A stretch of DNA of 64,000 nucleotides from a virus (IMGVR_UViG_3300028603_000018:128001-192000), one strand, 5' to 3'; counted from the stretch's first letter, positions 5,149 through 42,729 are shown. Numbers and translations: made by a program. Notes: generated by a model from the sequence alone, not told the origin.

Positions 5149-7740
5149 ATGCAGAAATACGATTACTTAACTGACTATGTATTAAAAAATGTATGGTGCT
5201 CTCCTCGTTTAGATTATACCTTTGTTATTGAACCAAAAAGAATAACACATCGGTATGGCGAATGGAACACAGTTAACACAGGTTGGAGAATTGTTTCTTT
5301 ACCTAAAAAGTCTACTCGCTTTCACGTATTTCAATACGGTCAAATCTATCCCTTACTACTTAACTTACCTAACAGTAGAAATAACTGGACCCTCATTAGT
5401 CAAGCTTGTAATGAGCAAAATATGTTGGTTGATATCTATACGAAAGATGGTATCATGCTTCCTAGAACCAAGGCATGGTATCAGGTAACGAGAGATAACA
5501 ACTTAATTATGGCTATTGAAGAGAGTGATGTTATTGACGCTCCCTATGGTGATGAACCTATCTATTTTAGGTTCTATACCAATGCCTATTTTAGAAGTCC
5601 ACGCTCATATCCCCAATCACAAGCTGTTACTATCACTGGTAAGCGTATTGATACAGTTACTGAAATTGTCACGTATCAAAACCAGGTAGAAGCCTTGAGA
5701 TTACAACATGGTGCAGTGTTCTGCTTTGTTAATGGTATCTATGTGAATAGCATTACTCCACTAACAGCTAGAATAGGTGATGAGGTAGAATATGTTTACG
5801 ATAGCTCTATTAAGAAAATTGTTACATTTAAGTTAAGTGAACTAAAAGAATTTGAGAGTACTTTAGATAATCGAAGGAAGTTCCTTTTAAACTATCCTCG
5901 TGATCCTGGTGATGAACCTATTGTTGATTATAAAGATGATATTGACGTTTACTTAATGAAACGTGATTCACCTATTAGTAATCGTTATAGAGGTAGGTAT
6001 TATAGTCATAATAGTTCAGATTGGTTAAGAAACTTAACTCATCGAGATTATAGCATTCCCGTTCAACTCATCAATAGTTATATTCAAGCTAATCCAGAAT
6101 GGCCTAATTCAAACGATATTGAAATCCAACTCTTTATTAGGCACGGTGGATTTGATCACAAGTTAATTTTTGAAGATAGCCGTATCCACGAACTCTATAA
6201 ACTCAGTGATGAAAAGATTCCCAGAGCTATGGTAGGGATTGATTCTACTTTAGAGTATTGGAGAGCAGCACATTTGGAAGCTTCTTTCTATACAAAAGCG
6301 ATGGGTATTAAAATCACTGAAGTGGATAGGGAATTAACTGAAGACCTCTTAGGTTATAACGCAATCAGTAAAGTGTTAGGTGATACACCTAACTTACTTT
6401 ATCCTAAGATGGGTCCTATGGTGGCTGATGTTCCTTATGGACTTCAATACCAATGTACAGGTTTTGAGTATGATGATGACGGTAAGTTACTAGGTTACAA
6501 TCACCATACTGGAACGAGTCAGTGGCCTATTCGAAATGATGATGCTAAATTCGTAGAACTCATTGCTAACTATAGCGACCGTTTACTAGATGAGTATTAT
6601 GGTTCTCCTGAAGTAGCTATTGATCCTCTTTACGAATATCGTTGCTATACTTGTCCTATTATTAATGGTATTCCTAGTAATGAGTGGACTGATGTAACAG
6701 ACTCTGGTAACTATCACATTGATAACGATAATCGTTTAATTTGGTTAGTCAATCCAAATACTACCTATACATTAGTTCGTTCTAATCGACGTAATTTAGT
6801 GTATAGTACTTCTATTACACCTACTTCAGCCACTACTCGCTTTGCAATTAAACAACAGTCCTTTAGAGAAGGAGTGTTATTAGAGCACAATATGCAAATC
6901 CCAATGGGGGAATTAGATATTTGGCTAAACGGACATTCTTTAATTGAAGGTGTGGATTATAAGGTTGAGTTTCCTGAGGTAGTTATCATTGGTAAGAAGT
7001 GGTTAAAAGTCCCTCAAGATGGTCCTCAGGATATTACGATTCGCTTCACTAATTTTTGTGATTCTGACCTCAACTATAATAGAGCTGGGGATAGAGGTTA
7101 TGTCAACCACGGTGTTATTAGCCATAATGACGTTTTCAATATCTTAGATGATAAAGTCTTACGCATTATTATCGGTGGTAAGACTTACATGCGTCAAGAT
7201 GTAGAATTTGCTGAAGATCATGGTGGTGGAACTGATCCACATCCTTTAAATGGACAACCTTATTTTGTTAGGGATATCATTGTTCCTACACGAGGTTTAA
7301 CGGATCAAAGTGCTTATGAGTTAAGGGATAAGAGTTTAGTGATTGATCAAAAGGTGAGTGACTATATGTCTATTCATTTACCTAATCCACATTATGGAAA
7401 TCCTAACGCTGTACTTGAAAGGTATCCTGTTGTCTCACCGTTCATTAATATCATCCTTCATGACTTACGAGCTGGTATTTTAAACGATCCTCGTATTCAA
7501 GGTTGGTATACAGATATGGAGGTGAGGGAAATTGTTAGTGATTACGAAAGATATCTTATCTTTGATCCTACTCAGCCTGAGAATCAATTAGATCCTACTT
7601 ATGTAGTTTGTGTACCTCATGTATTTGACTATGTGGTAGAGGTCAATCTCTTTATCTACCGATTCTTAGATAGAGTAGTCAAGCTCTATTGTAATAACCT
7701 AATTCAACTTTCTCATTTCTTAAAGTTAGAAGAATACTAA
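5149..7740 (+). CDS. Large virion structural/baseplate protein (phiKZ gp27-like)
   Basis: 863 aa with N-terminal NVWCSP and LNGHSLIEGVDY. Assigned by synteny. Confidence 0.7.
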   Translation: MQKYDYLTDYVLKNVWCSPRLDYTFVIEPKRITHRYGEWNTVNTGWRIVSLPKKSTRFHVFQYGQIYPLLLNLPNSRNNWTLISQACNEQNMLVDIYTKDGIMLPRTKAWYQVTRDNNLIMAIEESDVIDAPYGDEPIYFRFYTNAYFRSPRSYPQSQAVTITGKRIDTVTEIVTYQNQVEALRLQHGAVFCFVNGIYVNSITPLTARIGDEVEYVYDSSIKKIVTFKLSELKEFESTLDNRRKFLLNYPRDPGDEPIVDYKDDIDVYLMKRDSPISNRYRGRYYSHNSSDWLRNLTHRDYSIPVQLINSYIQANPEWPNSNDIEIQLFIRHGGFDHKLIFEDSRIHELYKLSDEKIPRAMVGIDSTLEYWRAAHLEASFYTKAMGIKITEVDRELTEDLLGYNAISKVLGDTPNLLYPKMGPMVADVPYGLQYQCTGFEYDDDGKLLGYNHHTGTSQWPIRNDDAKFVELIANYSDRLLDEYYGSPEVAIDPLYEYRCYTCPIINGIPSNEWTDVTDSGNYHIDNDNRLIWLVNPNTTYTLVRSNRRNLVYSTSITPTSATTRFAIKQQSFREGVLLEHNMQIPMGELDIWLNGHSLIEGVDYKVEFPEVVIIGKKWLKVPQDGPQDITIRFTNFCDSDLNYNRAGDRGYVNHGVISHNDVFNILDDKVLRIIIGGKTYMRQDVEFAEDHGGGTDPHPLNGQPYFVRDIIVPTRGLTDQSAYELRDKSLVIDQKVSDYMSIHLPNPHYGNPNAVLERYPVVSPFINIILHDLRAGILNDPRIQGWYTDMEVREIVSDYERYLIFDPTQPENQLDPTYVVCVPHVFDYVVEVNLFIYRFLDRVVKLYCNNLIQLSHFLKLEEY

Positions 7741-10194: not shown

Positions 10195-10233
10195 GTCATA
10201 AATAGGAGATCCTTTTGAGATCTCCTATTATGC
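10195..10233. repeat. 39-nt palindromic repeat, type B copy 1 (bidirectional terminator-like)
   Basis: Exact reverse complement of 24875-24913; one mismatch to 60086-60124. Confidence 0.85.
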
Positions 10234-14475: not shown

Positions 14476-15081
14476 ATGAGAGAAAAAAAAGGAACACTTA
14501 TGTTAAATAACTTGATTAAACAGCAAGAAGAAATGATGCTAGAGAACTATGTCTTAGCTAATAGAGATTTATTTCTTTTATTTAAAGATATAGAAAAACG
14601 ATTAGAAGGGGAGGAAGAACACACTGACACTCTTTCTGAATCTCTAGTAATCGTCTACAATATACTTTCTATTGGTCAATACATTATACCTAATGTGATT
14701 AAAAGTGATATTAATTGGTTCATCAATATCTTTAATCAGGAATTTGAACACGAACTAATTAGAATCGACACACATCCTAATATGGAAAACTTACTGTTAG
14801 TTAAAGTAGGTGATGAAAGGACAGATGTTCTCTCTATTGGGATTACACCTTCTTTAGAGCCTTCTAGATTTAAGATGTTTGTCATCGATCCTCAGGGTAA
14901 AGAGTTAGGAAAGTATAATACTTCTCAAGTGGTTTATAAAGAAATTATACGAACTGATATTTATAGGTATTTAGAGAATCTAACACAAGTCATTATTAAA
15001 GAGTTAGGTTCTTCCTTTCCTATTATCAATAAGATGGACCAAATTCTAACTATCTATAAAGAAAAAGATCTTGAAGTATAA
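14476..15081 (+). CDS. Hypothetical protein (start may be ATG 14500)
   Basis: 201-aa ORF with AAGGA RBS before the second ATG, promoter-like motif at 14447 and a terminator after it. Confidence 0.65.
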   Translation: MREKKGTLMLNNLIKQQEEMMLENYVLANRDLFLLFKDIEKRLEGEEEHTDTLSESLVIVYNILSIGQYIIPNVIKSDINWFINIFNQEFEHELIRIDTHPNMENLLLVKVGDERTDVLSIGITPSLEPSRFKMFVIDPQGKELGKYNTSQVVYKEIIRTDIYRYLENLTQVIIKELGSSFPIINKMDQILTIYKEKDLEV

Positions 15082-15083
15082 AG

Positions 15084-15121
15084 GCATAAAACGGGAGAGC
15101 AATTAGCTCTCCCAATTATGC
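15084..15121. repeat. 38-nt palindromic repeat, type A copy 2 (inverted)
   Basis: Its reverse complement differs by 1 nt from 794-831 and by 1 nt from 41950-41987. Lies between convergent genes. Confidence 0.85.
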
Positions 15122-15128
15122 CGTCTTA

Positions 15129-16394
15129 TTAAGAGAATAAAACAAGTCCTAGGACTTTACCCCAAGCCGTTAAAGCATTCACAGCTCCTTTAGCAAAGGA
15201 AACTGTAGTATTAAATACTGCTTTCGGATGTGTATGGAATTTTATCTCTTTAGATAAAGATCCTTCTTTAGACTTCTTATTAATTTCCTCTATTGTTTTG
15301 TCTAACTCTGGTGTCTTATCACCATTACTTGCAAACTGTTTAACATCTTCAATTAATTCGTTAATTTTATTTCTAGAGGTTTGAATTAAGTTTACAGTTT
15401 CTTCATCAGGTTCAGTGACTTCGACTTCAGTTTCTTCTTGCTCAATATCGCTATTTGAAAAGACTGTCTCTTCCTGAGTCTTTTCATTTTTGGTTGTAAT
15501 GCGAGTAATCTCGCCATTGGGCCAATTGAACTGATATTCAGACACTAATTCAGCAGGAGATTGTGGTCGAGTTTTTGATAACTGTTGAGAGAGCTTTTCG
15601 TAGTCTTCAGGATTAGCTTCAGCTAATTGCTCAGCCGCATTAATAGACCAGGTTTGATATACCACAGTTTGCTTCTTTACTTTATCTACTAATGCCTCAA
15701 TCTCTGAGATAGCTGTATTAGCTTCCTTACTGAGTTTTTTTAAATCCTTAACAGTACTCACTGATTTAACAGTTTTCTTCTTTACGGGTTTATAATTATC
15801 TAAAGCTTCTACAGATAAGTCCATTTCATCAGAATCAACACTATCTTCCTCTTGAGAAGATTCTACTTCATCTGACTCTTGTGTCAGCATATCAGGTTCT
15901 TCTTTTTCTTCATCAAAGATCTTACTAAAGAAAGAATCTAAGTCATTATACACTGCTAAGTTATTTAACTTAGCTATCTCTTCAATAATTAGTGTCCATG
16001 GATTAGCAGGTGATCCTTCTTTATCGACAATACTGATAAAGACTACATCATCACTAAACTCTTTGTCCTTAATAAGTTTATTAAAGTTAAGAAGATCATC
16101 AGTCGTTGATTTGGACTTCACTACTACGTAGATATAGACTTGTCCTTCTCCAGCCTTATCTACAATAATCTGTCTTCCATTAGAACTAAGTGTAAGAATG
16201 TCTGTTGACTCTACACTAGGTGCGTTAGTCTTTCTATCATCAAATTTAAATAACTCATGTAGAGTCTTACTAATGATCTCAGAAAGCGGACCCTTCATTA
16301 CGATGTTCTTTTTACCTGTTTTCTTATAATCGACAACACTAGCTCTAGTTCTATCATCTTCAGGCTTAGTTGTCTTGATCGTAAATTCAGACAT
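15129..16394 (-). CDS. Putative internal head protein
   Basis: 421 aa with an acidic linker and S-x-E sites (SVES, SVEAL) matching phiKZ-type prohead protease specificity. Shares a KGPLS domain with its neighbour. Confidence 0.5.
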   Translation of the reverse strand: MSEFTIKTTKPEDDRTRASVVDYKKTGKKNIVMKGPLSEIISKTLHELFKFDDRKTNAPSVESTDILTLSSNGRQIIVDKAGEGQVYIYVVVKSKSTTDDLLNFNKLIKDKEFSDDVVFISIVDKEGSPANPWTLIIEEIAKLNNLAVYNDLDSFFSKIFDEEKEEPDMLTQESDEVESSQEEDSVDSDEMDLSVEALDNYKPVKKKTVKSVSTVKDLKKLSKEANTAISEIEALVDKVKKQTVVYQTWSINAAEQLAEANPEDYEKLSQQLSKTRPQSPAELVSEYQFNWPNGEITRITTKNEKTQEETVFSNSDIEQEETEVEVTEPDEETVNLIQTSRNKINELIEDVKQFASNGDKTPELDKTIEEINKKSKEGSLSKEIKFHTHPKAVFNTTVSFAKGAVNALTAWGKVLGLVLFS

Positions 16395-16935: not shown

Positions 16936-17739
16936 TTATCGATAACCACCGAACATAAGTCTATAGTGTCGTCGACTCGATTCCATGTCCGTCATCATTA
17001 GAACACCCATTAGTGTTTCTTTTAAATATTCTTCATAAAGCTCATCAGCGTCTGAGAAACCTTCAATGATATTTCTAATAGCGCCGAGTTCAGCTCCGCC
17101 GCTAATTGCACCTTGATCTAGTTCTACAATAAGTGTATTGTAGATATATGCTTTTGTTGCTAGGAACACTGCCTCAGCAATGTTATTATAAGCTCTAATA
17201 GGAATGTTATTTAAATTCTCATCATTAGCGAGTCTGCATCGTAAATAAGTATTAGAAGGTAAGACATGCGTATAACGAACCGTCACTACGTTCTCTGCTA
17301 CTAATTCTACATAAGCTGAACTAATGGGAGGGATATTCGCATTAGAATCTAATAACGCTTTAGCAGATTGGAGTAATTCTCCTCTACCACAAAAAGCAGT
17401 TGATCCAAAACTATTTAATGCATTAGGGTCTAAGAAGTTAACACTTAATACAGAAACAATTGATCTACCGTCTGTTAAAGTCTTAGGAACTCTGAACACA
17501 CTAGTAAATTGCTCAATGACTTCTTTAGGGACGGTGATAAGAGGTACGAATACTTCTTTGCCTCCGATGATATCTAAGTCAGGTAATACACGATCATGGA
17601 TAACTTTAGTGAGGATCTGTTGTTCTATCGATACAGGTTCATTCCAATACCGAGTTAATGGTTTTAAGAAAGCTTCGCTTAATACGAGCTTATTAATTCT
17701 CATTGTTGTTTTCTTGATCGCGTGGTTAATAGCAGACAT
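16936..17739 (-). CDS. Conserved phiKZ-like virion protein, 267 aa
   Basis: Long ORF with KAYIYN and ADELYEEYL segments, in the late block upstream of PhuZ. Confidence 0.6.
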   Translation of the reverse strand: MSAINHAIKKTTMRINKLVLSEAFLKPLTRYWNEPVSIEQQILTKVIHDRVLPDLDIIGGKEVFVPLITVPKEVIEQFTSVFRVPKTLTDGRSIVSVLSVNFLDPNALNSFGSTAFCGRGELLQSAKALLDSNANIPPISSAYVELVAENVVTVRYTHVLPSNTYLRCRLANDENLNNIPIRAYNNIAEAVFLATKAYIYNTLIVELDQGAISGGAELGAIRNIIEGFSDADELYEEYLKETLMGVLMMTDMESSRRHYRLMFGGYR

Positions 17740-23123: not shown

Positions 23124-23540
23124 ATGATTTATCAATTTGAACCTGGTCAAAAATATTCATTTGACACCTATGCTCCTCAAATCCTGGGTACTGAATTTAA
23201 AACAGTAGTAGTTAAATCTGTTACTGATTACGAGGACGCTATTTCTGAGGAAGATGTTCAGGTATTACATAGTCAGATTCTTGGTTATATTACTGACTCT
23301 ACTGTATCTGTGCCTGCTGATTTTAGAAAACTCACTTATATTAAAATTGATACAGGAGTTGGTAAGCGTCGTTTTATTGCTGTAGAGTGGATTAAGCAAA
23401 ATACCATTACTAAAATCTCTGAACTCAATATTGATGTAACTATCTTTAGAGTAAGTGATCCTGCTAAAGTACGTTTAGTGAGGGAAGCTCTGTCTCAGAA
23501 TGGGTTTACTGATTTTCAAATTACTACAAGAGAAGCGTAA
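23124..23540 (+). CDS. Conserved phiKZ-like hypothetical protein (gp49-like position)
   Basis: 138 aa with YSFDTYAPQILG and WIK motifs; precedes the DNA polymerase region. Confidence 0.6.
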   Translation: MIYQFEPGQKYSFDTYAPQILGTEFKTVVVKSVTDYEDAISEEDVQVLHSQILGYITDSTVSVPADFRKLTYIKIDTGVGKRRFIAVEWIKQNTITKISELNIDVTIFRVSDPAKVRLVREALSQNGFTDFQITTREA

Positions 23541-23724
23541 TGTCTAAAAAATAAATACGCCACGCTATAGAAGGGAGAGGGGGTAAGAACACCCTTATTA
23601 GTATTTAGATCAGATCACTCACAAGCACTACTAACATTCTTACTAGTAGCAGTGTTTATACATCATACCTGTATTGGATCTTATAGATACATAATCAATC
23701 ACTTTTCTTAAAAGTAATATAATC

Positions 23725-24396
23725 ATGAGTAGAGAACTTCTAATAACTTCCTCCTTAGTTGATGGGTGGGGTAGTGAGATAGTGGATGAATTCACTAATT
23801 TTTATTTAACAGTACGGGATGGTCAGATAATCGATCTTATTAATCCTTCTAATTATGTAAATATCATAGGTACTGGGATTAGTACATCAGGTATAGAGAT
23901 TGTTAATACGACACGCTCTGGTTCTGGTATAGAAGTTCCTTCTGCGGCTTTTAATGTAACCTCATTAGAGAGTTCTACAGTGGAGTTCTGGGTTTATTTT
24001 ACTAACCCAATAGCTGAGCTTTATGATCAAATGTTAGGTCAGTGGGGGAGCGGAGCAAATAGCACATTTCAATTTTGTGTACTAGATTCTTATCTTGCTA
24101 TAGCACAGGCTAGACCAGGTAACTCTATTAGTACTTTTAGAAGAATACCTAATACTTGGATGCATGTAGCTTATGTGAACCCCGCTGGTGGCGGCAATAT
24201 GGTTATCTATGTAAATGGAGTTTCAGAGCAACTAGATAGACGTTGGACAGTTTCACCTAATTTGAATATTCCTATGTCTTTATTGAAGGTATATGGACAA
24301 AATGGATTTAGCTTATTAGGTAGGATAGCTAAAATGAGAATCTCCACCATTGCTAGGTATACAGAGAATTTCGTACCTAATTATGGAATGTATTGA
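23725..24396 (+). CDS. LamG/concanavalin A-like lectin-fold protein (possible tail-associated adhesin)
   Basis: TVEFW, NTWMHVAYV, IYVNG and G.I..MRIS..ARYTENF.P pattern; paralog of 9510-10179. Confidence 0.78.
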   Translation: MSRELLITSSLVDGWGSEIVDEFTNFYLTVRDGQIIDLINPSNYVNIIGTGISTSGIEIVNTTRSGSGIEVPSAAFNVTSLESSTVEFWVYFTNPIAELYDQMLGQWGSGANSTFQFCVLDSYLAIAQARPGNSISTFRRIPNTWMHVAYVNPAGGGNMVIYVNGVSEQLDRRWTVSPNLNIPMSLLKVYGQNGFSLLGRIAKMRISTIARYTENFVPNYGMY

Positions 24397-24459
24397 TAAC
24401 AAGAGTAAAAAAATAGAATAACTCATTTATATATCACCTCTATGACGGTATATAAATGA

Positions 24460-24867
24460 AACATCATTAACTGGGATGAAGATAATAATGTTAAATATGC
24501 TTCAGATGTTGATTTTTTAAATGATACTGAAATCAAAGCAGATCTCTATTCCTTAAAGTTTAACTCTCCTTCAGTACCTAAATCAAGTCTTTTAAAAGCT
24601 ATTGAGTTTAGTGGATCGGGTGTGTTGGTTAATACTGTTGATGATGTTGAATATACTGTTAAAGGTATTAGTCGTACTTTGACCATTAGCAGTAAAAGAG
24701 ATAAGGTTCTTTTTGTTACTAGAGAGAGGAATCTTATCATCCATGAGGAAACCTATTTGAAAGGGTTTTTTGAACTGATCGTAGGGAATTACCTCTCAGC
24801 TATGTTTAATCGCTTTGCAGCCTCTTTAAAGGCCCCTAGCGCTATTGATGTTGGTAGTATTAGTTAA
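24460..24867 (+). CDS. Hypothetical protein, start uncertain
   Basis: The frame of ORF 24622..24867 is open back to 24460. The nearest ATG (24456) is one base out of frame. Promoter motif at 24429. Confidence 0.5.
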   Translation, partial: NIINWDEDNNVKYASDVDFLNDTEIKADLYSLKFNSPSVPKSSLLKAIEFSGSGVLVNTVDDVEYTVKGISRTLTISSKRDKVLFVTRERNLIIHEETYLKGFFELIVGNYLSAMFNRFAASLKAPSAIDVGSIS

Positions 24868-24874
24868 GTATACG

Positions 24875-24913
24875 GCATAATAGGAGATCTCAAAAGGATC
24901 TCCTATTTATGAC
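24875..24913. repeat. 39-nt palindromic repeat, type B copy 2
   Basis: gcataataggagatctcaaaaggatctcctatttatgac; exact inverted copy of 10195-10233. Confidence 0.85.
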
Positions 24914-25179
24914 CTTCTTTTCTATTTATTTATTTATGTTTTTAGATTATCGGCTATTAATAGTAAGCTATTATAAAGCATTCTAGCTATTATATTTAAG
25001 CTAGGGGTCCTAGCATACCAATATGAGAATAAAAGCGCTTATAGAGCCTCTAGAGGGCTTAGAGAGTGTATTGTGATCCAAAAGCAATCTAGTTACTCAT
25101 CCATGGAGAATGATGTAGTAACTCTCAATAAAAGTGCTAATATGATAATAGCTGTTGCATAAAAAAGTCGCGGCGCCTA

Positions 25180-25555
25180 ATATTACTTATATAACCCCTA
25201 CTTTCTCAAATTCTTATAGTTTCAATTTCTCTTATCTATTATAATACTTAACTTCTTCTATCTACTATTACTTTTAAATTAATAGGTAAATATATTTATT
25301 TTTATTTATACCTATTATCATTTGTAAAAGTGTTAGTTCTATGAGACTTGACCCACTTATAGTACCTCTTTGGTAAAAACACTTTTACGGGTCCGAGCCT
25401 TGGCGAGATACTTGGTAGTAGATAAGTATTGTTCGAAGCTGTAGGTATAGAAAGGATATAATAAGGTTATAGTAAGGATAGTAGCTGAGATAAGATACTT
25501 AGATACGTACCCCCTTGCGAAGCAACTTGAATCCTAGAGAAGCGAAGCTTCTCTT
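25180..25555 (+). other. Long fold-back non-coding element: candidate replication origin or structured ncRNA
   Basis: Nested complementary blocks with G-T/G-U pairs and two GCGAAGC hairpins, in a roughly 900-nt ORF-free gap before the DNA polymerase region. Confidence 0.55.
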
Positions 25556-25790
25556 AACATACATACATACGCAAGATATTAAGCTATAAACATAAATAAA
25601 TATTACATTATTATACCTATTATACAACAACACTATAAGAACAGACTAAAAAGCCTATAGAGAGACTAGTATCTCTCTATTTATGCCTTACTATTGACTA
25701 TACTAGTCTACTACTAGAATAAAAGAATAACTACTTATACTAGAAAACCATCTACTTAAAGTAACTACTTAGAATAGAAAGAACCTACTC

Positions 25791-26201
25791 ATGGAAAGAT
25801 TTAAAGATACTTGCTACTTACTAGAGAGAACGAGTCAGATTGAAGGACTACTAGTTTATATTCGTAGTATACTACAATTAGAGAGTTATGAAGAAGAACG
25901 GTTTATTGATGGATTAATTGATTATAGTTTAAATAGTCGATTTATTAGGACTCAAGTAAATGAAGAGATAGTGTTGAAGTTTGTAGATGAGAGTCTTTAT
26001 AGTAAGTTGACTTTAAATAGGTCTTACTTAAATGCTTTAATTAAGTATAGTAGACTATTCTTAGAAGAAGTAGGAAAGAAGGTGAGTGGGTTAAGGATTA
26101 GGGGAGAGTATGTTGGATTACCTGTAGAGAAGAGGAATTTGTATCTCTATAGCCGAATTGAGAGTAATGAGTTTATTGCGATATGCGAGATAATAGAGTA
26201 A
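25791..26201 (+). CDS. Hypothetical protein, 136 aa
   Basis: ORF upstream of the DNA polymerase; G-rich codon usage. Confidence 0.6.
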   Translation: MERFKDTCYLLERTSQIEGLLVYIRSILQLESYEEERFIDGLIDYSLNSRFIRTQVNEEIVLKFVDESLYSKLTLNRSYLNALIKYSRLFLEEVGKKVSGLRIRGEYVGLPVEKRNLYLYSRIESNEFIAICEIIE

Positions 26202-26342
26202 GTGGTGGGTAAATGAAGAAGAGAGGAGGGGTTGATTATTCTCTCTTTTCCTTTCCTATATAGAAGAGAGGGAGAATAACTTTTATTTTTTTATCTATTT
26301 GGTTAATGAGATAGATAGATAAAATGCTTTTGAGAGAATATA

Positions 26343-28499
26343 ATGAAATTTCAATCTCCTTTTGTATTACCTGTAGAAGAGTATACGAGAGATCTGAATC
26401 TAGTTAAGCACTATGTGACTCAGAATGCTTATTACTTACATAAGAGGACTGGTAAGCCTATTGAAGTCTGTGAGAGTTATGTAGAGAAGCAAATTAGGAA
26501 AGGAGGGAAGTTTGAGTTAAAGGACCCTGTATTGACTCATACTTACCGAGGGGATAATGGTGATAGAGCTAAAGTGCAGAGTGGGTATTTACAGTATCTG
26601 ACTACCGCTATTAAGGAGAGGGATGTTATTGCTCCTACTTTGACTCGGTATAAGAACCCTTTAATTAAAGAATCTATTCAGGTAGGCTCTATTGATAATA
26701 AGAAGAAATTAAGAGCTATTGATAAAGAAAAGATGTTCCAGGCTGATAGGGATGGGAATGAGGAGAGGAGGGTTTATTATTATAACAGTCAGACAGGTAG
26801 GAAATTATCGAATAATGCGGTAAGTGGTGGGTATTGTTCTACGAGTACTATTATTTATAATCCATCTGGCCATACTAGCTTGACAAGTACATGTCGAGTG
26901 ACTGCTGGATATGGGAGTATGAATAATGAGAAAGTATTAGCTGGTAATAGACACTACTATGATGATGAGATTGTGATTGGGAATATCTTATCTATTTGTA
27001 GTACGATTGATAAAGAAAAAATAGCTAATACATGTAGTCTGTATCAATTAAAGTATCCTAGTCATGAAGAAGTGATGGATGCTATTTTACGATGTACTCG
27101 CCTTTATTGGAATCAAGCTGATAAAGAAGAGAGGATTTGGGAGTTAGTTAAGACGCTAGGGCCTGAGGAAAGGGCTGCGTTTATGTATACGGGAGACTTG
27201 TATAATACACGTATACTCAATGATAACTTCATGAAGGAATTCATTACTGATTTAATTAGACCTGCTACTGAACCTCATCCTGATCCTGATAGTGTTTTTA
27301 AATCAGTAGAGGGTGACTATATTACTGTAGCTTGTCAAATTCATAGTGGGTTTATGAATGGTAAGGAATTAAAGAAGTTAAAAGGAACTAGAGAGTATGG
27401 TATCGTAGCTGCTACGCTTTATAATTTCTTATCTGTTCTACATCGACATAAAGCTTTCTTTAGTACTTTCTTTTTAACGAGAAATGTACCAGCTTCTATT
27501 GCATTTGCACCTAGTTCAGTTAGGTTCTCTGTATTGATGGGTGATACAGACTCTACAATGTTTACTGTACAAGAATGGGTAAAGTGGTTTACAGGTAGTT
27601 ATGCTTTTACTGAGATCAGTAATGCAGTATGTGAGACGATGATCTTTTTAGCTTCACAGTCCATTACTCACTGTCTAGCCTTATTAAGTGCTAATCTAGG
27701 CGTTAGGAAAGAGCGGTTGTTTGAGAATGCAATGAAAAATGAATATCGGTTTGATTCATTTACTCCTACTCCTAAAGCTAAACATTATTATGCCTTAATA
27801 GGGAGGCAGGAGGCTAATAGTTATGTTAAGAGGAAGGTAGAGGTCAAGGGAGTTCATTTAAAGAGTTCTGCGGCTCCTAAAGCGATTATGAAGGCAGCAG
27901 AGGAGAAGATGGTCGAGTTAAGTAATAAAGCACTCAAAGGAGAGAAGATCTCTATTGTAGATGAGTATCAGTTTATTGCTAATATCGAACACTCTATTGT
28001 CAATGCTATTAAGAGCGGACAAAGTTCTTACTTTAGATTACAGCGTATTAAAGATAGTAAGGCTTATAAGCAAGAACCGACTAAGAGTAACTACCTACAT
28101 TACACGATGTGGCAAGAAGTCTTCCAAGATAAGTATGGTACAGTAGATCCCCCTCCTTATCCTGCTTTGAAAATCAATATGGATATAGAAAGTAAGACAG
28201 ATTGGTTAAACTTTGTTGCGAGTATTAAAGACGAAGCCCTTAAACAACGACTCTTAGATTTTTGTGTTAAGTATGGAAGAGAAATTATTAAGACCTTTTA
28301 TATTCCAAAAGGGTTTATTATTGATAATGGAGTACCTGAGGAATTGATGAATGGTATTGATATTCGTAGAATTGTACTCGATAATACGAAAGTCTTCTAC
28401 TTAATTCTAGAATCTTTAGGACAGAACTTTATTGATGATAAGATTAATAAGCTCGCTATGGATACGTTTGAATTAAAAGAAACTTTTATTATTGAATAA
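26343..28499 (+). CDS. Family B DNA polymerase, polymerase-domain subunit (phiKZ gp50-like)
   Basis: Motif B QTGRKLSNNAVSG, motif C MGDTDS, KHYYA and KGVHLK. No exonuclease domain is visible, consistent with the split polymerase of phiKZ-like phages. Confidence 0.9.
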   Translation: MKFQSPFVLPVEEYTRDLNLVKHYVTQNAYYLHKRTGKPIEVCESYVEKQIRKGGKFELKDPVLTHTYRGDNGDRAKVQSGYLQYLTTAIKERDVIAPTLTRYKNPLIKESIQVGSIDNKKKLRAIDKEKMFQADRDGNEERRVYYYNSQTGRKLSNNAVSGGYCSTSTIIYNPSGHTSLTSTCRVTAGYGSMNNEKVLAGNRHYYDDEIVIGNILSICSTIDKEKIANTCSLYQLKYPSHEEVMDAILRCTRLYWNQADKEERIWELVKTLGPEERAAFMYTGDLYNTRILNDNFMKEFITDLIRPATEPHPDPDSVFKSVEGDYITVACQIHSGFMNGKELKKLKGTREYGIVAATLYNFLSVLHRHKAFFSTFFLTRNVPASIAFAPSSVRFSVLMGDTDSTMFTVQEWVKWFTGSYAFTEISNAVCETMIFLASQSITHCLALLSANLGVRKERLFENAMKNEYRFDSFTPTPKAKHYYALIGRQEANSYVKRKVEVKGVHLKSSAAPKAIMKAAEEKMVELSNKALKGEKISIVDEYQFIANIEHSIVNAIKSGQSSYFRLQRIKDSKAYKQEPTKSNYLHYTMWQEVFQDKYGTVDPPPYPALKINMDIESKTDWLNFVASIKDEALKQRLLDFCVKYGREIIKTFYIPKGFIIDNGVPEELMNGIDIRRIVLDNTKVFYLILESLGQNFIDDKINKLAMDTFELKETFIIE

Positions 28500-42229: not shown

Positions 42230-42729
42230 TTAAATAAGCCGAAGGGATTAAAGTCCCTTCGGTAACAGTTAGTCGCATACAATAGAGAATTAACAATAAA
42301 TAAATATTAACATCCCATCTTTTTATCATCTTAAACACAAAGGACTTTTAACATGAGAAGCATTCTTACTGAAGATTACAGCAATACTCACTTTGGCTGG
42401 GTTTGAGCGATACCACGCACCACACCCAGTGATTATTTCTCATGTTCAAAAATGGATTATGAAGTTCGATGACTGGAATCCAGATGATTGCCTCTATACT
42501 TTTATTGAAAATATTATCGACGAAGGTGATCAGAAGTAATTAAAGAGAGGATAGTCTATTACAGATTATCCTCTTCTACTTCTCTTTCTTTTTTTTTTTC
42601 TTTTGTTATAGTAAATTTATTCCTATATTTCAACTCTATCATATACAAATTAAATAAAACATACAAACAAATGCTTAAATTCAGATTAAGAAGTAAGGAT
42701 ACTATGATGCTATTAAAGGATTTATAAAC

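Follow-up and report, generated by a model that had tools for sequence, protein, structure and literature searches.

Does the fold-back of about 300 nt that lies upstream of the DNA polymerase gene in a phiKZ-like jumbo phage mark a replication origin, does it specify a structured RNA, or is it neither? The preliminary description of the locus had noted nested stems at 25180-25480 and proposed an origin, acting as single-stranded DNA or primer RNA, or alternatively an undescribed ncRNA. The window, i.e. the whole stretch of DNA analysed, is 64,000 nt long and corresponds to bases 128001-192000 of contig C90 (244,062 nt); all positions refer to the window unless marked as contig positions. The GC content of C90 is 35.8%, against about 65% for the other large contigs of the same MAG, and C90 is thus a mis-binned contig of an uncultured phiKZ-like jumbo phage. 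Its polymerase, also encoded in identical form on a second contig (249,759 nt) detected in a search of 5.8 billion proteins, has its best named relatives (36-42% identity) in phiKZ-like jumbo phages of Ralstonia, Burkholderia and Erwinia.

The fold-back falls within an ORF-free gap (24868-25790), the third-largest on the contig. The slot between the SH3DP and polymerase genes (23541-26342) is occupied by a LamG paralogue, a 135-codon open frame, the spacer which contains the fold-back, and ORF136. The features of the region are collected in Table 1. Both ORFs flanking the spacer are orphans; for ORF136, no relative or function was found in IMG/VR, GTDB, PHROGs or Pfam, and the ESM Atlas returned only matches with TM <0.5. 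The first canonical start of the 135-codon frame is a GTG at 24622, and the frame may be a truncated or decaying orphan gene, or a gene with an unusual start. With an upstream frame devoid of a canonical start, and orphans on both sides of the spacer, the neighbourhood has the appearance of accessory DNA with a fast turnover. A 4-codon mini-ORF (ATG 24456) is located between the promoter-like motif at 24431 and the 135-codon frame, and ORF136 contains long C-free runs, of 60 and 54 nt.

Table 1. Features of the spacer and of its flanking regions, ordered by window position.
Feature	Position	Strand	Evidence or remark
SH3DP gene (PF20287)	23124-23540	+	Pfam E 5.9e-24; position in about 60 loci
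Promoter-like ATATCAC motif (24431), followed by the 135-codon open frame (24460-24867)	24431-24867	+	
Left boundary: perfect 11-bp hairpin, then TATTTATGAC	24879-24913	+	
ORF-free, non-coding stretch, 743 nt	24914-25656		ORF, period-3, tblastn and Rfam checks
5' arm of a 23-nt inverted repeat, 91% complementary, partner 25580-25602	24927-24949	+	pair probability 0.81
TAAAAGYGYT copy 1, near-palindromic site	25030-25043	+	
TAAAAGYGYT copy 2	25129-25142	+	
G-depleted, T-rich left arm of the fold-back	25176-25284	+	begins with ACTTATATAACC at 25185-25196
Joint lowest-GC tract of the 244-kb contig, candidate DNA-unwinding region	25208-25331		GC scan
Central hairpin A: 9-bp stem, AT-only loop	25280-25317	+	pair probability 0.97
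Central hairpin B: 15-bp stem enclosing two small hairpins	25320-25391	+	pair probability 0.41
C-poor, purine-rich right arm of the fold-back	25413-25500	+	
Two GCGAAGC mini-hairpins, then an (ACAT)3 repeat	25515-25554	+	
3' arm of the 23-nt long-range inverted repeat	25580-25602	+	
Right boundary: 10-bp hairpin, then TATTTATGCC	25657-25687	+	
Orphan 136-aa ORF (ORF136) between spacer and polymerase gene	25791-26201	+	GC skew +0.54
Divergent family B DNA polymerase (PF20286) of phiKZ-like jumbo phages	26343-28499	+	Pfam E 5.2e-220

The sequence facts of the preliminary description were confirmed. All eight stem pairs listed there are present exactly where they had been placed, with 62 Watson-Crick and 6 U-G pairs and no mismatches. 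In line with the claim that the deviations are mostly G-U-compatible on the + strand only, all 6 U-G pairs have U in the left arm and G in the right one. The two arms are oppositely biased, the left being T-rich and nearly G-free, the right purine-rich, with 2 C per 40 nt. Only two tracts of the contig contain no more than one G per 80 nt; the left arm is one of them, and includes a joint-longest G-free run of 65 nt. Because the left arm lacks G and the right one almost lacks C, U-G is the sole wobble possible, and on the + strand only; as an effect of composition, the strand-specific G-U pairs are not independent evidence.

The folding statistics held only in part, i.e. for the centre of the structure. 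When compared with dinucleotide shuffles of the whole sequence, the segment 25180-25480 folds as RNA significantly on the + strand (-69.6 kcal/mol, z -3.40, 0/100) and not on the - strand (-52.8 kcal/mol, z -0.73). This kind of shuffling, however, mixes the oppositely biased arms and destroys their compositional split, so that the z-score is inflated. When each arm was shuffled within itself and the centre kept, the mean was -64.2 kcal/mol (sd 4.2), for a z of -1.30, with 28 of 300 shuffles as good as the natural sequence. The arms alone, joined by a linker, gave z -1.86 (45/1000) on the + strand, +0.22 on the - strand and +0.21 when G-U pairs were forbidden. The outer fold-back thus fails the composition-matched null, while the central hairpins pass it: the segment 25276-25400 has a z of -4.02 (0/1000) on the + strand and of -2.48 on the - strand. 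Folded as single-stranded DNA, 25180-25480 reaches -27.2 kcal/mol (z -2.4) on the + strand and -24.1 kcal/mol (z -1.3) on the other. In a scan of the contig by 3250 windows of 300 nt, where the MFE was regressed on composition, the fold-back ranks 112th on the + strand and 1503rd on the - strand, and gaps bearing terminators or introns score far better.

The whole 775-nt stretch was also folded. Compared with 100-nt block shuffles, it has z -3.65 (+) and -2.93 (-), with nearly equal energies on the two strands (-179.4 and -177.6 kcal/mol, respectively). In its ensemble, the three outer helices of the preliminary description have pair probabilities of 0.83-0.995, and three other arm helices only 0.02-0.05, because a rival register, 25231-25242/25415-25426, competes with them. 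Several registers are possible since the same short motifs occur in opposite orientation across the arms, CTTAT, CTAC and TACT in the left one and ATAAG, GTAG and AGTA in the right one. Lopsided base composition thus accounts for most of the outer long-range pairing, whereas the two central hairpins, and they only, exceed it; in hairpin B, 11 perfect pairs and an extension with three U-G pairs make up the stem. The fold-back is therefore weak evidence for either a replication origin or a structured RNA.

The interval 24914-25656 is truly non-coding. It contains no ATG-started ORF of at least 30 aa and has stops in all six frames, its period-3 power ranges from 0.4 to 1.7 (coding median 3.9), and no protein remnant was detected by tblastn against 6153 ORFs from the low-GC contigs of the MAG, including C90, and from the loci of relatives. 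A search of the whole window at the Rfam gathering thresholds revealed nothing in the gap, nor was a tRNA detected. When the search was relaxed to E 10 over 24300-25900, the best matches scored 14-20 bits (E 2.4-6.8), far below threshold, and none of them was an intron; true group I introns elsewhere on C90, which carries several, score 61-78 bits.

Most of the other large gaps of the contig hold a recognisable element, i.e. group I introns, a tRNA, a twister-sister ribozyme or promoters. Three of them are accounted for by a tRNA gene (contig 42437-42512, L089, 50.8 bits) and two group I introns (contig 98605-99012, L084, 60.8 bits, and contig 102508-102813, L090, 65.6 bits). The twister-sister match (RF02681; contig 15073-15149, + strand, L085:174-250) scores 43.2 bits against a gathering threshold of 34 (E 5e-8), keeps the conserved core positions, and sits in a 763-nt ORF-free gap which also holds an early-type promoter motif.

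Additional repeats are found in the spacer. The helix formed by the 23-nt inverted repeat, whose sequence is low-complexity TATT/AATA, closes the MFE structure of the whole stretch, and an exact 13-nt direct repeat is present at 25306 and 25611. The motif TAAAAGYGYT occurs seven times on the contig, with four copies in the gap against 0.03 expected, a figure to be read in the light of the motif having been defined from the gap itself; copies 3 and 4, at 25325 (+) and 25378-25387 (-), form the two strands of the hairpin B stem. GCGAAGC is present in 6 copies in the window, against 2.1 expected, two of the six being those of the mini-hairpins. The GC content of the lowest-GC tract drops to 11.7% over 60 nt and 15% over 100 nt, values which tie for the contig minimum.

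The hairpins at the borders of the spacer belong to a larger set. About 40 intergenic elements, composed of a hairpin with a GC-rich stem followed by TATTTATG, are present on the contig, with tails reading TATTTATGC or TATTTATGA; examples in the window are located at 10204 (-), 24904, 25678, 36632 and 60115 (+). Their left side is often mirrored by GCATAAATA, and a tail motif, TTTATGCCGT, is also retained in L008 (5890-5915), a relative whose polymerase is only 43% identical. The left boundary element is a member of a near-identical 39-nt subfamily, found with 97-100% identity at five sites, in both orientations. The late promoter consensus of phiKZ is TATG, with G as +1 (PMC4666361; PMC12809450), and for this reason the hairpin elements are read as terminators which may double as late promoters, the latter role being putative. 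The left boundary hairpin is accordingly predicted to be a terminator and possibly also a phiKZ-type late promoter, its TATG being located at 24908-24911. GC-stem hairpins with TATTTATG at both boundaries resemble the terminators and TATG late promoters of phiKZ-like phages (phiKZ P119L; 201phi2-1 terminators); here, however, two such elements, with a TATG promoter role that is putative, enclose 743 nt without a gene. The spacer is the only empty interval between adjacent, same-strand elements of this kind on the contig. Other pairs less than 3 kb apart enclose genes, while the 774-nt interval of the spacer encloses none; the intervals of similar size, of 866 and 1071 nt, each enclose a single gene of 195-230 aa.

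Two further classes of promoter-like motifs were defined on the contig. The first, early-type, is AT-rich, about 35 nt long, with core AATTACATATAACTA, and occurs about 14 times, on the + strand throughout (at 453 and 42029 in the window); the second, ATATCAC(T/C)A-N3-TG, is present in about 16 copies, on the + strand (window 24431, 36821, 47033 and 61307). Neither class occurs in the gap between the boundary hairpins.

For a syntenic comparison, 80 polymerase loci were taken from metagenomes. In the search of 5.8 billion proteins, the closest polymerases are 58-60% identical (L002, L003 and L076). Conservation in the syntenic gap of relatives, which had been suggested as a source of support, was not observed: these three loci have no such gap, and no homologue was detected by covariance model or by sequence. 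Directly upstream of their polymerase gene, an RNase H-like gene of 506 aa and a 143-aa gene are found, whose C90 counterparts are located at contig 121-123.5 kb, about 30 kb off. A hairpin+TATTTATGC element lies about 60 nt before the polymerase start codon in both L002 and L003.

The SH3DP gene precedes the polymerase gene in most of the about 60 more distant loci carrying both, and the slot between them is filled by unrelated orphans, encoding 130-190 aa, or by DNA that is free of ORFs over 300-620 nt. An ORF-free spacer common to the whole family was considered and rejected, being in part an artefact of ORF filtering, as one subgroup of relatives (L058, L063, L065, L068 and L079) has a gene of about 180 aa which overlaps the 3' end of the SH3DP gene. 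This gene (about 5380-5935), conserved and 179-185 aa long, is read in another frame and takes up the space before the polymerase gene. The loci compared indicate that the slot between SH3DP and polymerase genes varies from lineage to lineage in this phage family.

Searches with the spacer by BLAST, nhmmer and covariance model did not reveal any homologue, whether in the 853 kb of sequence from relatives, in phage collections and IMG/VR, or in the genome of the phage itself. Specifically, blastn against the phage collection gave no match, a covariance model of the central hairpins matched only itself in the 853 kb of loci and the whole MAG, and the search of the own genome retrieved only terminator hairpin repeats. 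A pattern scan of IMG/VR detected one hairpin in an unrelated phage (L082), attributed to chance, and no other match; ten matches of a GC-rich 19-mer in high-GC bacteria, among the GTDB genomes, were likewise attributed to chance.

The tests performed do not refute an origin or an ncRNA, nor do they lend strong support to either. The preferred reading, to which a probability of roughly 0.4 is assigned, is that the interval is a lineage-specific low-complexity spacer, with the fold-back as a by-product and no specific fold. The G-free, T-rich tract and the C-poor, purine-rich tract flank two genuine hairpins (25280-25391), and any alignment of the two tracts yields many A-U, C-G and U-G pairs, on the + strand only. 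Placed in the variable slot between SH3DP and polymerase genes, at a probable genome rearrangement junction, the spacer separates the predicted terminator hairpin of an upstream accessory unit from the hairpin+TATG element preceding the polymerase unit. It may have arisen in acquired DNA whose simple motifs underwent local duplication, inversion and slippage, and its role would not go beyond that of a spacer or insulator separating two transcription units.

In favour of this reading, the arm pairing is at chance level under all local-composition nulls (z -1.30, -1.86, +0.22 and +0.21), registers compete, with three helices at pair probabilities of 0.05 or less, the contig rank is only 112/3250 and the single-stranded DNA fold is weak. 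In addition, the interval is non-coding, has neither an Rfam family nor a homologue, and corresponds to a gap absent in the closest relatives; the equivalent slot in about 60 loci holds unrelated orphans or ORF-free DNA, the neighbourhood resembles fast-turnover accessory DNA, and a second ORF-free gap on the contig (16958-17541) is built in the same style. Local strand bias, motifs in direct and inverted copies, many registers and lack of conservation are all properties of ordinary, 'cryptically simple' intergenic spacers. The C90 spacer differs from these in being longer than usual for a phage, and in its two hairpins and motif cluster, which exceed chance. Several observations weigh against the low-complexity reading: the central hairpins are well above chance (z -4.0), the 775-nt stretch beats block shuffles on both strands, four of the seven TAAAAGYGYT copies lie here, for a motif chosen after looking, and both the joint lowest-GC tract and a minimum of cumulative AT skew, at 25448, fall within the interval. 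Furthermore, since most other large gaps hold a recognisable element, a purely idle stretch of 743 nt would be unusual.

A transcription unit devoid of ORFs, whose + strand product would be a lineage-specific ncRNA (about 770 nt) or a long leader undergoing processing, is somewhat unlikely. Such a transcript would run from the TATG of the left element to the right-hand hairpin; the 24927/25602 helix would join its two ends, and the central hairpins would form its core. In its size and in the elements on either side, the interval does match the single-gene cassettes of the contig, yet it has no ORF, and TATG with G as +1 matches the phiKZ late promoter consensus (PMC4666361). Structure is stronger on the + strand, both over 300 nt (z -3.4 vs -0.7) and at the centre (z -4.0 vs -2.5), and the closing helix has a pair probability of 0.81. 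However, composition alone accounts for the better pairing of the arms on the + strand, the full-length strands fold almost equally well, and G-free, AU-rich tracts of 100 nt are poor material for a stable fold; moreover, neither a homologue in the data searched nor an Rfam match was found. The flanking elements have roles of their own, in that one ends the upstream unit and the other precedes the polymerase unit, as in L002 and L003, so that their presence does not prove transcription of the spacer.

A precedent for small phage RNAs is provided by phiKZ and 201phi2-1, in which they arise by termination shortly after the start site (PMC11512511). The C90 interval resembles these 5'UTR-derived and intergenic RNAs in its layout, where a possible start site is followed by a terminator and no ORF separates the two. 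The known RNAs, however, are shorter than 250 nt, were found by transcript mapping and include one conserved among genera, whereas the C90 candidate is about 770 nt long and is not conserved.

Somewhat doubtful is also a transcription-activated replication origin analogous to oriF and oriG of T4, where a promoter is combined with a downstream DNA-unwinding element (PMC4412123). By this analogy, transcription from the TATG of the left element (about 24911) would run into the AT-richest tract (25208-25331), where an R-loop, or a protein bound to the TAAAAGYGYT sites or to the hairpins, would open the duplex beside the polymerase gene; the right-hand hairpin would stop read-through. [quoted passage not shown] It differs from them in that its promoter is a putative one, the AT-rich tract begins about 300 nt beyond the promoter instead of immediately after it, its location is not shared by the closest relatives, and initiation at this site is hypothetical. 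With the RNA II primer of ColE1 the idea is shared of a folded, purine-rich transcript which stays hybridised to its template and primes DNA synthesis; the two are not similar in sequence or structure, an RNase H site cannot be deduced here, and the host replicon is a phage, not a plasmid.

Local features partly favour an origin. The spacer holds the joint lowest-GC window over both 60 and 100 nt, an easy-melting tract as expected at origins of the T4 oriF/oriG type, it adjoins replication genes, it groups more than half of the TAAAAGYGYT copies, two of them as an inverted pair, and it carries the two GCGAAGC mini-hairpins and abundant inverted repeats on both strands. The TAAAAGYGYT copies, on the other hand, are irregularly spaced (99, 196 and 53 nt, with the last pair inverted) and were defined post hoc, and no initiator gene was recognised nearby, the flanking ORFs having no Pfam, PHROG or structural match to initiators; the combination of regularly spaced repeats and a neighbouring initiator gene, typical of iteron-type origins, is thus not found in the spacer. 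The absence of the element from the closest relatives, and of the two well-defined promoter classes from the spacer, also argue against an origin.

Strand composition was examined along the contig. An inflection of cumulative GC skew near 25.3 kb, indicated in the preliminary description as support for an origin, is absent: the curve follows gene strand, and a step at contig 153.3 kb explains 0.4% of the variance. The accompanying remark that + strand genes become G-rich right after this point is accurate, with a GC skew of +0.54 for ORF136 and +0.25 for the polymerase gene; this G-richness follows gene identity and strand, and does not reflect a replication switch. The detrended cumulative AT skew, in turn, has its global minimum at contig 153,448, corresponding to 25448 in the window, as would suit an origin. 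The curve, however, stays flat between contig 153 and 156.5 kb, and where exactly its minimum falls depends on the T-rich and then A-rich halves of the spacer itself. At four-fold sites, an excess of T on the + strand extends over contig 99-149 kb in genes of both strands (permutation 6/300, p about 0.02), with AT-skew residuals of -0.088 and -0.060 inside the domain, against +0.032 and +0.056 outside. Its having the same sign in genes of both strands is the signature of a strand-wide, rather than gene-wise, bias, which counts in favour of an origin; its boundary, at contig 148.7 kb, lies 4.5 kb to the left of 153.3 kb, which counts against one.

Gene order offers another explanation for this domain. 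When contig 77-83, 119-123.5 and 154.3-156.5 kb were compared with L003, the polymerase gene of C90 was found to be without both of its L003 neighbours, those of the right-hand side being located, inverted, at contig 77-83 kb. One inversion of about 83.1-156.5 kb, combined with a 30-kb insertion, would explain the gene order relative to L003; inverting this segment would restore the adjacency of the polymerase gene to its right-hand neighbours. The AT-skew domain falls within the apparently inverted block and, since inversion of a block within a genome of uniform bias produces the same V-shaped curve, it need not mark an origin.

A decayed gene or mobile element (an accessory gene, a homing-endonuclease gene, an intron or a MITE-like insert) mutated past recognition is very unlikely: the cassette-like size of the interval, the start-less upstream frame, the 23-nt inverted repeat near both ends, the exact 13-nt direct repeat and the presence of several group I introns on the contig would agree with it, but period-3 signal, similarity to the 6153 ORFs, Rfam matches to group I introns or other families even at E 10 and other copies in the genome are all lacking, and the interior would have to be completely scrambled between flanking hairpins that are perfect. 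A pseudogene or intron remnant was rejected on the same period-3, tblastn and Rfam results.

The second gap in the style of the spacer, at contig 16958-17541 (L088), is also ORF-free, and holds the only other tract with at most one G per 80 nt. The sequence ACTTATATAACC is present in three copies on the contig, all intergenic and on the + strand, one at 25185 and two in this gap. The gap is composed of a GC-rich structured head, a G-free tract with CTATAAC repeats, and a hairpin+TATTTATGC element at its end. Its fold is not significant (z -1.2), and it has no Rfam match. Either both intervals belong to a single functional class, or both exemplify the same kind of low-complexity filler. If the spacer were an origin, the look-alike would require that several exist, which speaks against that reading. 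That the spacer is a transcription-activated origin of a nucleus-forming, phiKZ-like phage, and the 17-kb gap a second one, is unlikely; in such a two-origin scheme, the duplex would be unwound at the AT-richest tract, and recognition would rely on the TAAAAGYGYT sites as well as on the central hairpins.

We know of no replication origin mapped in the phiKZ-like phage family, whose DNA is replicated inside a protein 'nucleus', and a 2026 review uses neither the term 'origin of replication' nor 'replication origin'. A mapped origin in phiKZ-like phages would therefore be useful, but the fold-back itself should not be taken as evidence for one, as whole-sequence shuffles overstate significance for compositionally split sequences. 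What remains, as a weaker lead, is the AT-rich, repeat-bearing, gene-free spacer beside the polymerase gene, together with the similar one at contig 17 kb.
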